NCBI GenBank assembly: GCA_049642725.1
Contig: JBARPC010000027.1
Span: forward strand, 1,010-65,009
Direction of reading: 5' to 3'
DNA from: Minisyncoccales bacterium
GTDB lineage: Bacteria > Patescibacteriota > Minisyncoccia > Minisyncoccales > JAGMDC01
Length of the DNA: 64,000 nucleotides
Under the pieces are notes generated by a model. That model made no database searches, was not told the DNA's origin, and saw only the letters and a program-made list of their open reading frames with translations. Every line of letters starts with the position of its first letter. Position 1 is the stretch's first letter. Shown here piece by piece: positions 1-1,830 of the stretch. A program made the translations under genes and the position numbers.

Positions 1-1830
1 AATGATGTTTTTAATGAGGAAGAAATAAGGAATTTTGATAAGAGAATGAAAAGAGAACTTGGTATTAAAGAAGTTGATTATACTGCTGAACTAAAAATTG
101 ATGGCATGCATATTATTTTATGTTACGAAAAAGGCGTTTTGAAAACCGGGGCAACCAGGGGCGATGGCAAAGTCGGTGAGGATGTCACCCAAAATCTAAA
201 AACCATTGAATCAATTCCTTTAAGTATTAAAGAAGATATTGACATTGTTGTTGAGGGTGAGATTTTTATGAGAAAATCAGTTTTTAATAAACTAAACGAA
301 AAAAGAAAAAAATTAAATCAACCATTATTTGCTAATCCCAGAAACGCGGCTGCTGGCGCCATTCGCCAGCTTGATTCCAAGATTGCCGCAGAACGTGAAC
401 TTGATTGCTTTGCTTATGATTATTCTTGGCCGGAAAAAGATATTCCTAATAGCCAGTTTGAAGAGTTAAAGAAATTAAGAGAGCTTGGTTTTAAAATAAA
501 TAAAAATTTTCAACATTGTCAAAATATAGATGAAGTAATTAAATTCTGGAAAGATTGGCAGAAAAAAAGAGAATTCCAGAATTTTTGGATTGATGGTGTA
601 GTAATAAAAGTAAATAAAAGAGAATTTCAGAACAAGCTTGGTTATACGGGTAAAGCGCCAAGATGGGCTATTGCTTTTAAATGGCCTGGTGAACAGGCAA
701 CCACGATTTTAGAAAAAGTGGTTTTTCAGATTGGCAGAACTGGAAAAATTACGCCAGTTGCCTGGTTAAAACCAGTTAATATTGGCGGCTCTTTTGTCTC
801 CAGAGCAACTTTACATAACGCTGATGAAATTAAGCGGCTGGGAGTAAAGATAAAAGATACTGTTATTGTTGAGAAAGCCGGCGATGTTATTCCTCATATC
901 ATCAAATTTTTACCAGAGCTAAGGCCTAAAAATGCCAAAAACATTGAAATGCCAAAGACCTGTCCTATTTGCGAATCAAAAGTGATTAGATTAGAAGGTG
1001 AAGTTGCTCATTATTGCTCAAATAGAAAATGCGGAGCCAGGCAAAAGAATAAACTTTCTTGGTTTGCTTCCAAAAAGGCATTTGACATTGAAGGATTAGG
1101 GCCAAAAATCATTGACCAATTAATGGACAAGGGATTAGTTTCAAACCCTGCTGATTTATTTACATTGAAAAAAGGAGATATAATTCCATTGGAAAGCTTG
1201 CCCCGTAGGAAGCCGAAGGCTTTCCTTCGGGGATTTGCTGAAAAATCATCTTTTAATTTAATAAGAGCAATTGAGAAAAGCAGGGCAATAACATTGCCGA
1301 AATTTATTGTTTCTTTAGGAATTAAATATGTTGGAGAAGAAACTGCTGCGCTGCTTTCGCAGCAAGTTCAAAGTTCAAAGTTCAAAGTTCAAAATTTAAG
1401 TGATTTAATTACTTTCTTTAAAAATATATCACAGGAAGAATTAGAAAGTATTGAGGGCATAGGATTAAAAGTAGCGAGCAGTATTACGGATTGGTTCTCT
1501 CAAAAAGAAAATATTGAATTATTAAAAGACTTAGAAAAAGCAGGAGTCAAGATAAAAAAAGAAAAACCTGCCCCGCATCGTCCGAGCGAAGCGAGGACTG
1601 GCGCAGGGTTGAAAGATAAGATATTTGTTTTTACTGGAGAAATGAAATCAATGTCAAGAGAAAAAGGAAAAGAAAAAGTAAAAGCATTGGGAGGAAAAAT
1701 TCCTAATTCCATAAGCAAAAATACTGATTTTCTGGTTTTAGGTCAAAACCCTGGTTCTAAGTATGAAAAAGCAAAAAATTTAGGAATAAAAATAATTTCT
1801 GAAAAAGAATTTTTAGACATTATTAAATGA
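1..1830 (+). CDS. ligA: NAD-dependent DNA ligase LigA (5' end lies upstream of window)
   Basis: Frame is open from base 1. Adenylation motif ELKIDG, Zn-finger cysteines (CPICES...C..RKC), HhH region and C-terminal BRCT (IFVFTGEM...GGK). The N-terminal ~100 aa typical of LigA are missing from the window. Confidence 0.95.
   Translation, partial: NDVFNEEEIRNFDKRMKRELGIKEVDYTAELKIDGMHIILCYEKGVLKTGATRGDGKVGEDVTQNLKTIESIPLSIKEDIDIVVEGEIFMRKSVFNKLNEKRKKLNQPLFANPRNAAAGAIRQLDSKIAAERELDCFAYDYSWPEKDIPNSQFEELKKLRELGFKINKNFQHCQNIDEVIKFWKDWQKKREFQNFWIDGVVIKVNKREFQNKLGYTGKAPRWAIAFKWPGEQATTILEKVVFQIGRTGKITPVAWLKPVNIGGSFVSRATLHNADEIKRLGVKIKDTVIVEKAGDVIPHIIKFLPELRPKNAKNIEMPKTCPICESKVIRLEGEVAHYCSNRKCGARQKNKLSWFASKKAFDIEGLGPKIIDQLMDKGLVSNPADLFTLKKGDIIPLESLPRRKPKAFLRGFAEKSSFNLIRAIEKSRAITLPKFIVSLGIKYVGEETAALLSQQVQSSKFKVQNLSDLITFFKNISQEELESIEGIGLKVASSITDWFSQKENIELLKDLEKAGVKIKKEKPAPHRPSEARTGAGLKDKIFVFTGEMKSMSREKGKEKVKALGGKIPNSISKNTDFLVLGQNPGSKYEKAKNLGIKIISEKEFLDIIK
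1364..1391 (+). repeat. Tandem heptamer array (AAGTTCA)x4 inside ligA
   Basis: Read directly. Encodes part of QVQSSKFKVQNL. Confidence 0.9.

Follow-up and report, generated by a model that had tools for sequence, protein, structure and literature searches.

Two in-frame GC-rich inserts in the ligA gene of a Minisyncoccales bacterium, probable copies of a dispersed and mostly intragenic family of imperfect palindromes

The stretch analyzed here, 64,000 nucleotides (nt) of contig JBARPC010000027.1 from a Minisyncoccales bacterium (hereafter the window), has a GC content of 34% (0.34) and begins inside ligA, the gene for NAD-dependent DNA ligase. Two GC-rich segments are inserted in this gene, one in the HhH motif (site 1) and one in the linker between the HhH and BRCT domains (site 2); they are the subject of this work, and the coordinates of all features are collected in Table 1. 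The ligA product matches the E. coli LigA (2OWO) at an E-value of 3e-134, the KxDG (catalytic) and Cys4 (zinc-finger) columns are invariant in our LigA alignment A1, and the AlphaFold model has a mean predicted local distance difference test score (pLDDT) of 88.2; judged from these data, the gene looks functional. The closest database proteins are 77-80% identical to it, with none above 80% returned, and two of them (P0003 and P0007) have source names of Candidatus Parcubacteria. The HhH subdomain of LigA reaches across the minor groove to bind the two DNA strands non-specifically, and BRCT is a flexible domain (PMC5052709).

At site 1, a reading made without database searches (the sequence-only reading) had proposed a GC-rich imperfect palindrome at 1201-1232 that is inserted in frame and splits the HhH motif. 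The 32-mer at these positions, CCCCGTAGGAAGCCGAAGGCTTTCCTTCGGGG, lies within the element and has no other copy in the window with up to three mismatches allowed. Codon alignment of a filled ligA (locus L001) with two empty ones (L003 and L004) bore out the in-frame insertion and delimited it as exactly 36 nt at 1197-1232, with the boundaries GAAAG-CTTGCCCCGTAGGAAGCCGAAGGCTTTCCTTCGGGG-ATTTGC. The insert interrupts the Arg codon AGA, LE-R-FAEKS becoming LE-SLPRRKPKAFLRG-FAEKS, and its predicted translation is (S)LPRRKPKAFLR(G), the codons at both ends being shared with the split Arg codon. Filled and empty alleles have identical flanks; a single base at most is ambiguous, and no longer target duplication is present. 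The usual LigA motif had been given as LEGFGEKS, which had to be corrected: relatives read LERFAEKS and E. coli reads LERMGPKS. In an alignment with 47 LigA homologues, the extra residues are common to the window and P0003 only, all others having LE-R-FAEKS. On the E. coli protein (2OWO), the insertion point falls between E486 and R487 of L-E-R-M-G-P-K-S, in the HhH hairpin; Arg487, the equivalent of the split codon, is presumably an important residue. In the AlphaFold model, residues 399-405 form a loop with helices 391-398 and 406-426 on either side, and the pLDDT of the block 401-410, over site 1, is 55.

The palindrome folds beyond shuffled controls both as RNA (-21.7 kcal/mol, z -3.5, 1 of 200 shuffles as good) and as DNA (-11.6 kcal/mol, z -4.05, 0/200), with 13 base pairs in 36 nt, and the imperfect hairpin can form on both strands. 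Two covariance models score it at 63.5 and 64.7 bits (E 8e-14 and 9e-12). An intrinsic-terminator scan of positions 900-2000 passed over the ligA copy, so that the identity of this copy as a terminator is unsupported.

The site-1 element belongs to a dispersed family. Scanning metagenomes with its 22-nt core, GAAGCCGAAGGCTTTCCTTCGG, as an exact-match probe returned at least 120 stretches, and the matches listed, to which all counts of contexts below refer, contain 76 different flanking contexts with the consensus tttG-CYTGCCCCGTAGGAAGCCGAAGGCTTTCCTTCGGGG-ttt. T-rich flanks are found at many of the copies outside ligA. Most contexts (52/76) fall within open reading frames (ORFs) that are 150 codons or longer; of the remainder, 12 are in ORFs of 80-150 codons and 12 are outside any long ORF. 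A Pfam scan of six hosts identified two class I aminoacyl-tRNA synthetases, which we read as ValRS and LeuRS, PheRS-beta, Mfd/TRCF, GyrA and LigA. The copy in this LigA host occupies a second site, within the adenylation domain, and that in GyrA the same C-terminal-domain loop where the window gyrA carries another element (see below). Most copies are single; inverted (head-to-head) doublets are few (L234 2461-2543, L159 1070-1149, and a cluster in L166).

Five of the six reading frames of the 36-mer contain no stop codon. Relative to the element as written, the two predominant frames are antisense (PEGKPSASYGAG in 28 contexts and PKESLRLPTGQ in 18), while the basic sense frame LPRRKPKAFLRG is essentially limited to ligA. 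Of the 52 copies in ORFs, 48 are antisense (48:4). Attributing this excess to an orientation bias linked to replication is unsupported, since intergenic copies are roughly balanced in orientation relative to the neighboring genes; selection on the peptide, or on terminator-like sense copies, is therefore the likelier source of the excess.

Variants of the element, gathered by a head-and-tail pattern and then by covariance model R1, range in length from 33 to 51 nt, with 36 nt the commonest, and 39 of the 44 distinct variants have a length that is a multiple of three (33, 36, 42, 45 or 51 nt). The head YYTR, the CCCCG/CGGGG outer stem, an unpaired T after this stem and a GAA-type triloop are kept across variants, as is a bulge in the 3' arm (mostly T, occasionally C). 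Within the outer stem, G-T-A is kept at positions 9-11, and the fourth base (G, C or T) covaries with its partner. Eight inner pairs covary (for example AGG/CCT, AGC/GCT, ACT/AGT; AAGCC/GGCTT, GAGCC/GGCTC, GTCGC/GCGAC, CAACC/GGTTG). Over the 44 distinct sequences, 98.2% of cells are paired, and 82 double-change cells were observed against 22.8 in shuffles, none of 500 shuffles reaching 82.

Covariance-model searches of 643 kb of the metagenome contigs recovered with the 22-mer gave 129 matches, of which 100 were ascertained and 29 were additional, non-ascertained copies. Among loci of other genomes, 736 kb in total (98/100 of them loci of the pattern scan, mostly Patescibacteria), the sole match above 26 bits was the L001 ligA copy. 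With this one match and a single copy in the window, the family is lineage-restricted and sparse in this genome. Scans of viral contigs with the site-1 and site-2 cores gave no match, and an Rfam scan of window positions 1-9000 with E up to 1 found only the tRNA at 8285-8366 and nothing at the elements.

Site 2 is the strongest GC spike of ligA, where a 30-nt stretch reaches 0.73 (window value 0.34). The linker has 7 residues in 59 of 130 homologues (range 4-14), and the window has the 14 residues PAPHRPSEARTGAG. The segment is shared by P0001, P0002, P0004 and P0005 only, with P0003, P0006 and P0007 lacking it. Of the three claims made earlier for this site, the GC spike and the insertion in the linker before the BRCT domain stand; the nested palindrome does not, since neither the RNA fold (z -1.6, 13 of 200 shuffles as good) nor the DNA fold (z -0.84, 41/200) goes beyond shuffled controls, the very comparison that the sequence-only reading had named. 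Site 2 does resemble the family in sequence: its local alignment with the 44 variants scores 35 (null 14.9 +/- 2.1, maximum 23, 0/300 shuffles), with a 45-nt variant as best match, and the L003 orthologue matches the 42-nt variant TTTACCCCGTACCGTCCCGCTGGAAGCGGGACTGGTGCGGGG over nearly its full length (score 36, 0/300 shuffles). Having a palindrome no better than chance and a significant similarity to longer variants, site 2 is, by sequence comparison, a decayed relative, a copy of a longer subfamily of the site-1 family. The same linker holds three unrelated GC-rich palindromes according to lineage: the type of the window and L003, that of L004 (CCGCCAGCTGGCGG), and that of L178, a strong hairpin (fold of the linker region -47 kcal/mol). 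Inserts of this kind thus accumulate in the linker, which is permissive to them.

Both sites are local GC spikes encoding Pro/Arg/Gly/Ala-rich peptides, as had been anticipated, and the suggested orthologue alignment identified both as insertions, not conserved LigA sequence. Mapping onto the AlphaFold model placed both in low-confidence loop or linker segments, residues 524-533 of site 2 having a pLDDT below 50. The idea of a genome-wide family of such hairpins holds strongly for site 1, through its many contexts and the covarying model, and by similarity for site 2; within the 64 kb, a single copy is detected by the models.

In the LigA tree, almost every member of a distant clade has the site-1 insert (L170, L178, L151, L246, L162, L233, L144, L153, L184 and P0081), and in the window's own clade it is present in the window and P0003 only. 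P0003 is also the only one of the close relatives aligned to share the site-1 flanking peptide NPADLFTLKKGDIIPLE. Sliding-window identity revealed two tracts of different affinity (Table 1), the rest of ligA being 64-89% identical to L001. The window ligA is a recombinant mosaic, and homologous recombination, with the inserts carried along with their flanks, explains why both are present in this genome when close relatives have one or none. In the ligA copy of P0081/L247, which a protein search brought up and which is hence unbiased, two synonymous changes from the consensus compensate each other (AGG to AGA, TTC to TTT). The L001 (P0003) copy has two uncompensated stem changes, with loss of the fold, and two peptide replacements. 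The structure is thus maintained in some lineages and decaying in others. In addition, ligA contains a perfect tandem array of the heptamer AAGTTCA at 1364-1393 (+; 4.3 copies) within the coding sequence, where one unit more or less would cause a frameshift. The TsaD-like gene of L004 has a comparable AAGTTCA/AAGCTCA array at an insertion site.

Several other palindromic insertions were observed. The hairpin at 8755-8791 lies in an ORF whose syntenic counterparts in L001, L003 and L004 are called HSP20. It has a DNA fold z of -4.4, and the same linker in orthologues holds different hairpins, with compensatory CCCGCC/GGCGGG versus CCCTCC/GGAGGG. Its resemblance to the 42-nt variant that matches the L003 site 2 is weaker (score 24, 1/300 shuffles), and it is probably a distant member of the site-1 superfamily, as far as sequence similarity can indicate. 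The gyrA gene of the window carries a second, different in-frame element (DNA fold z -6.1), which is missing from the L003 gyrA and has no Rfam match in the scan of positions 1-9000. A scan of genomes with its terminal inverted repeats gave at least 120 matches; those listed come from many classes of Patescibacteria as well as from Omnitrophota, WOR-3, Thermodesulfobacteriota, Bacteroidales and Gammaproteobacteria metagenome-assembled genomes. Among the same listed matches, copies occur both between genes and in long ORFs, and their inner hairpins are variable. The gyrA of L004 (13207-17136, 1309 amino acids) is interrupted by an intein-splicing domain (PF14890) that the window gyrA lacks.

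The TsaD gene of L001 (precomputed Pfam; 20099-20953, minus strand) contains three copies of an HPVK...FNRVK element, two of them identical at different sites; one copy is present in L003 (12502-12600) and none in the window counterpart (9738-10820, minus strand). At the 'HILAN' site of TsaD, lineage-specific hairpins were found in L001 (20541-20584), L003 (12805-12848) and L004 (20917-20960), and the window has no insert there. Their left arm consists of the native conserved codons (ILAN) and their right arm is an inverted copy, the arm pairs being CTCGCCAATTTG/CAAATTGGCGAG, CTCGCCAAC/GTTGGCGAG and GCTAACTGGC/GCCAGTTAGC. They look like products of template switching, either created or maintained by it. 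Stable hairpins are in strong excess over the whole stretch, with 213 44-nt windows at or below -14 kcal/mol versus 15 in a block-shuffled control (for example 12645-12688, 13821-13864, 18953-18996, 19585-19628, 45433-45476, 56141-56184, 56561-56628 and 61405-61448), and several are perfect palindromes within predicted coding regions. Finally, a 100-nt GC-rich segment (up to 0.70; fold -30 kcal/mol) lies at 5542-5642, between the ORFs 2986-5517 and 5671-6186.

Table 1. Positions of the ligA inserts, of neighboring genes and elements in the window, and of Y1 transposase-like genes in related loci.
Feature	Position	Strand	Remarks
ligA (NAD-dependent DNA ligase)	1-1830	+	5' end beyond the window edge; host of both inserts
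Site-1 element, 36-nt imperfect palindrome CTTGCCCCGTAGGAAGCCGAAGGCTTTCCTTCGGGG	1197-1232	+	Sense orientation; based on insertion boundaries, fold, covariance models and dispersed core
Site-2 element, 42-nt GC-rich segment CCTGCCCCGCATCGTCCGAGCGAAGCGAGGACTGGCGCAGGG	1567-1608	+	Encodes 14-residue PAPHRPSEARTGAG; HhH-BRCT linker
Tract 95-97% identical to L001 (P0003 lineage)	1024-1248 (approximate)	+	Sliding-window identity; carries site 1
Tract 87-95% identical to L003 (P0002 lineage)	1474-1998 (approximate)	+	Sliding-window identity; contains site 2 and the beginning of the following gene
ORF after ligA	1827-2936		Syntenic counterparts in L001, L003 and L004 with precomputed Pfam FTSW_RODA_SPOVE (rodA-like)
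Next ORF, gyrA	2986-5517	+	Counterparts in L001, L003 and L004 with precomputed Pfam DNA_topoisoIV and DNA_gyraseA_C
Second, different in-frame palindromic element	5149-5208	+	In gyrA; CACCCCGTTAAAT - two small hairpins - ATTTAACAGGGTA
Related GC-rich hairpin GCCCGCCGTAGTCCCGCGTGGCGGGACGGAGGCGGGT	8755-8791	+	Antisense, in frame in minus-strand ORF 8401-8931; encodes KPASVPPRGTTAG
PF01797 Y1_Tnp genes	L233 4260-5012; L184 8501-9163; L162 1847-2587		Immediately 3' of ligA, before the next ORF (rodA-like by position)
PF01797 Y1_Tnp genes	L144 252-971; L246 5249-5857		Near a ligA element copy
PF01797 Y1_Tnp gene	L001 4023-4739		6 kb upstream of ligA

Taken together, we estimate a probability of roughly 0.7 that both ligA segments are copies of a dispersed superfamily of GC-rich imperfect palindromes, mostly intragenic, in Parcubacteria-type genomes. 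As 36 nt is a multiple of three and the element is stop-free in five frames, an insertion would usually leave the gene intact, the insert being read as an additional loop of 11-17 residues. Copies would persist wherever the host protein tolerates such a loop, as in the HhH hairpin (site 1) and the flexible HhH-BRCT linker (site 2). A HUH Y1 (IS200/RAYT-like) transposase may mobilize the elements, or may once have done so, as hairpins of single-stranded DNA, RAYTs being transposases associated with repetitive extragenic palindromes (REPs); such handling of hairpins has been proposed for REPs and RAYTs (PMC3733652). No target duplication is seen, the mismatch and bulge are conserved and the stems covary; these features, like the triloops and the doublets, fit this mode of handling. 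The elements would be passengers with no host function, and site 2 would now be decaying.

Candidate enzymes are present in the related loci (Table 1), and all four Y1 proteins scanned pass the Pfam cut-off for PF01797. Each Y1 gene with flanking hairpins has its own pair; that of L162, CCCCTGTTTAAAC...GTTTAAACAGGGG, resembles the gyrA-type inverted repeats. An arrangement of a RAYT with its cognate REPs was looked for at seven Y1 gene matches in six loci and had to be rejected, the flanking hairpins, where found, differing from the site-1 element. This difference counts against the proposed mobilization, as do two further results: only two of the four Y1 proteins match the NCBIfam RAYT model NF047646, both below its cut-off, and a tblastn search of the window with the L001 Y1 transposase found no homologue. 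With such hairpins and RAYT scores, the connection to Y1 enzymes is inferential.

Other observations weigh against membership in one mobile superfamily. Searching the window with two covariance models, filters off, recovered the site-1 copy alone in 64 kb, and neither site 2 nor the 8755-8791 hairpin was detected. The 22-mer probe requires an exact match, so that most copies are ascertained; moreover, the variant set of alignment A2 was fold-filtered and alignment A3 was fitted to the model. The peptide translation of the inserts is predicted from the nucleotide sequence. Finally, the stem covariation and the compensated ligA copy could mean that the hairpin is selected for a function.

Such a function could be that of a cis-element (as RNA, a ribosome pause site between domains, an mRNA stabilizer or an attenuator; as DNA, a binding site), the spread of the family then reflecting its use. 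Besides the strong covariation, the recurrence of the unpaired T and of the 3'-arm bulge, the compensated synonymous pair of P0081, the retention of the insert throughout the deep ligA clade and the location of both ligA sites at motif or domain boundaries of the AlphaFold model would agree with a role of this kind. We nevertheless regard it as improbable: most close orthologues function without either insert, the L001 copy has lost its fold, that of site 2 is now no better than chance, and the ligA copy is not terminator-like. The copies, in addition, occupy unrelated positions in unrelated genes and are mostly antisense, so that no common mRNA role is evident.

We give the same low credence to a selected peptide, in which the site-1 insert, whatever its DNA origin, would have been kept as an adaptive basic RRKPK loop on the DNA-binding HhH domain. 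The closest relatives lack the insert, P0003 has two replacements in the peptide, the model confidence is low there, and most of the conserved copies came from an exact nucleotide probe. Some features would nonetheless be expected if the peptide mattered, namely the identity of SLPRRKPKAFLRG across the deep ligA clade (including the unbiased P0081), the near-restriction of the basic sense frame to ligA, the contact of the HhH subdomain with both DNA strands across the minor groove (PMC5052709), and the L-R-G end of the insert, which restores an Arg beside FAEKS.

Local template switching during replication (snap-back synthesis), in which neighboring sequence is copied in reverse complement with no mobile family involved, is very unlikely here. 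The 'HILAN' hairpins of TsaD, with their native left and inverted right arms and sequences differing by lineage, would illustrate the process, and the site-1 flank GGAAAGC (1192-1198) is complementary to GCTTTCC within the insert. This 7-nt complementarity is, however, within chance, site 2 matches variants from other contigs along its whole length, and the occurrence of the same 36-mer with 76 unrelated flanks among the matches listed contradicts such an origin for site 1; other hairpins of this lineage could have arisen in this way. Least credible of all is that the element serves the whole genome as a signal, for instance for DNA uptake, and is for this reason enriched in genome-maintenance genes, a bias known for the uptake sequences of Neisseria: type IV pilus/competence-like genes are present, pilus and secretion genes adjoin ligA in L001 and L004, and LigA, GyrA and Mfd are among the hosts, but a 36-nt element with covarying stems is unlike the known uptake signals of 9-12 nt, its density is low (one copy in the 64-kb window) and many hosts are tRNA synthetases.

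The superfamily reading could be widened, although we hold the wider version as doubtful: the hairpins would form a distinct class of 'coding-compatible' miniature mobile elements in Patescibacteria and neighboring uncultivated phyla, perhaps serviced by Y1 enzymes. They may reside mainly in essential genes, where certain permissive loops would be remodeled time after time, such as the LigA HhH-BRCT linker, the GyrA C-terminal-domain loop, and the HSP20-like and TsaD-like linkers. The outer stem CCC(C/T)G...C(G/A)GGG is common to these hairpins and to the far more widespread CACCCTGTTAAAT...ATTTAACAGGGTG gyrA family. If this is true, such elements would generally supply these reduced genomes with protein insertions.

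For the two ligA segments, membership in a dispersed superfamily would explain odd Pro/Arg/Gly-rich insertions in essential proteins of candidate phyla as mobile hairpin DNA, not adaptive features, which is relevant to annotation, marker-gene alignments and phylogenies, and structure prediction. A mostly intragenic family would also be useful for studying how coding constraint filters selfish DNA, and a conserved mismatch and bulge with covarying stems provides a concrete candidate substrate for assays of the Y1 transposase-like proteins of these genomes.

Di Nocera et al. (2013) described GTAG- and CGTC-tagged REPs, some of them intragenic in DNA synthesis and repair genes, including one in the DNA ligase of Opitutus terrae, with short Rickettsia palindromic elements (RPEs) equivalent to the CGTC-tagged REPs; Patescibacteria are not among the phyla named for these repeats in that text (PMC3733652). 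Our full-text search of a literature collection found no description of such elements in the candidate phyla radiation (CPR), Patescibacteria or Parcubacteria. The present family resembles intragenic REPs and REPINs (REP doublets forming hairpins) in that both are GC-rich imperfect palindromes of 20-40 nt, here dispersed over many metagenome contexts, with some copies in frame in replication and repair genes, DNA ligase included. As in REPs, complementary changes in the stem distinguish the subfamilies, and a few copies stand as inverted doublets, most being single; as in REP-RAYT systems, the genomes with the element also contain genes of the IS200/RAYT kind. Classical REPs are extragenic, whereas most contexts listed here are in long ORFs. 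The tag of GTAG-REPs is at the element end, whereas GTA(G/C) is here inside the CCCCG/CGGGG outer stem. Cognate REPs flank their RAYT, whereas the Y1 genes found here lack this element at their flanks and score below the RAYT equivalog cut-off. Moreover, the host is of a Patescibacteria lineage, outside the phyla named for REPs (PMC3733652).

With insertion sequences of the IS200/IS605 group and their miniature derivatives, the family shares hairpins with a conserved unpaired or bulged T, a ligA site with no target-site duplication, and PF01797 genes nearby in related contigs. It differs from them in having no distinct left and right ends, no conserved target tetranucleotide that we could identify, and intergenic copies that are roughly balanced in orientation. 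Like the MITEs (miniature transposable elements with inverted repeats) of DDE transposases, these are small non-coding inverted-repeat elements in many copies; unlike them, the ligA insertion lacks a target-site duplication, and the element is a single 36-nt hairpin, shorter than typical MITEs.

RPE-1 is about 100-150 bp long, and we know of no transposase shown for RPEs. The present elements, of 33-51 nt and with no CGTC end, are set apart from RPEs by the description of size and tag, and they occur in a different phylum and lifestyle from those of Rickettsia. As with RPEs, palindromic inserts stand in frame in essential genes and the extra peptide, here predicted, is tolerated by the fold, so that the ligA elements and their relatives would extend intragenic REP/RPE-like elements to the Patescibacteria.

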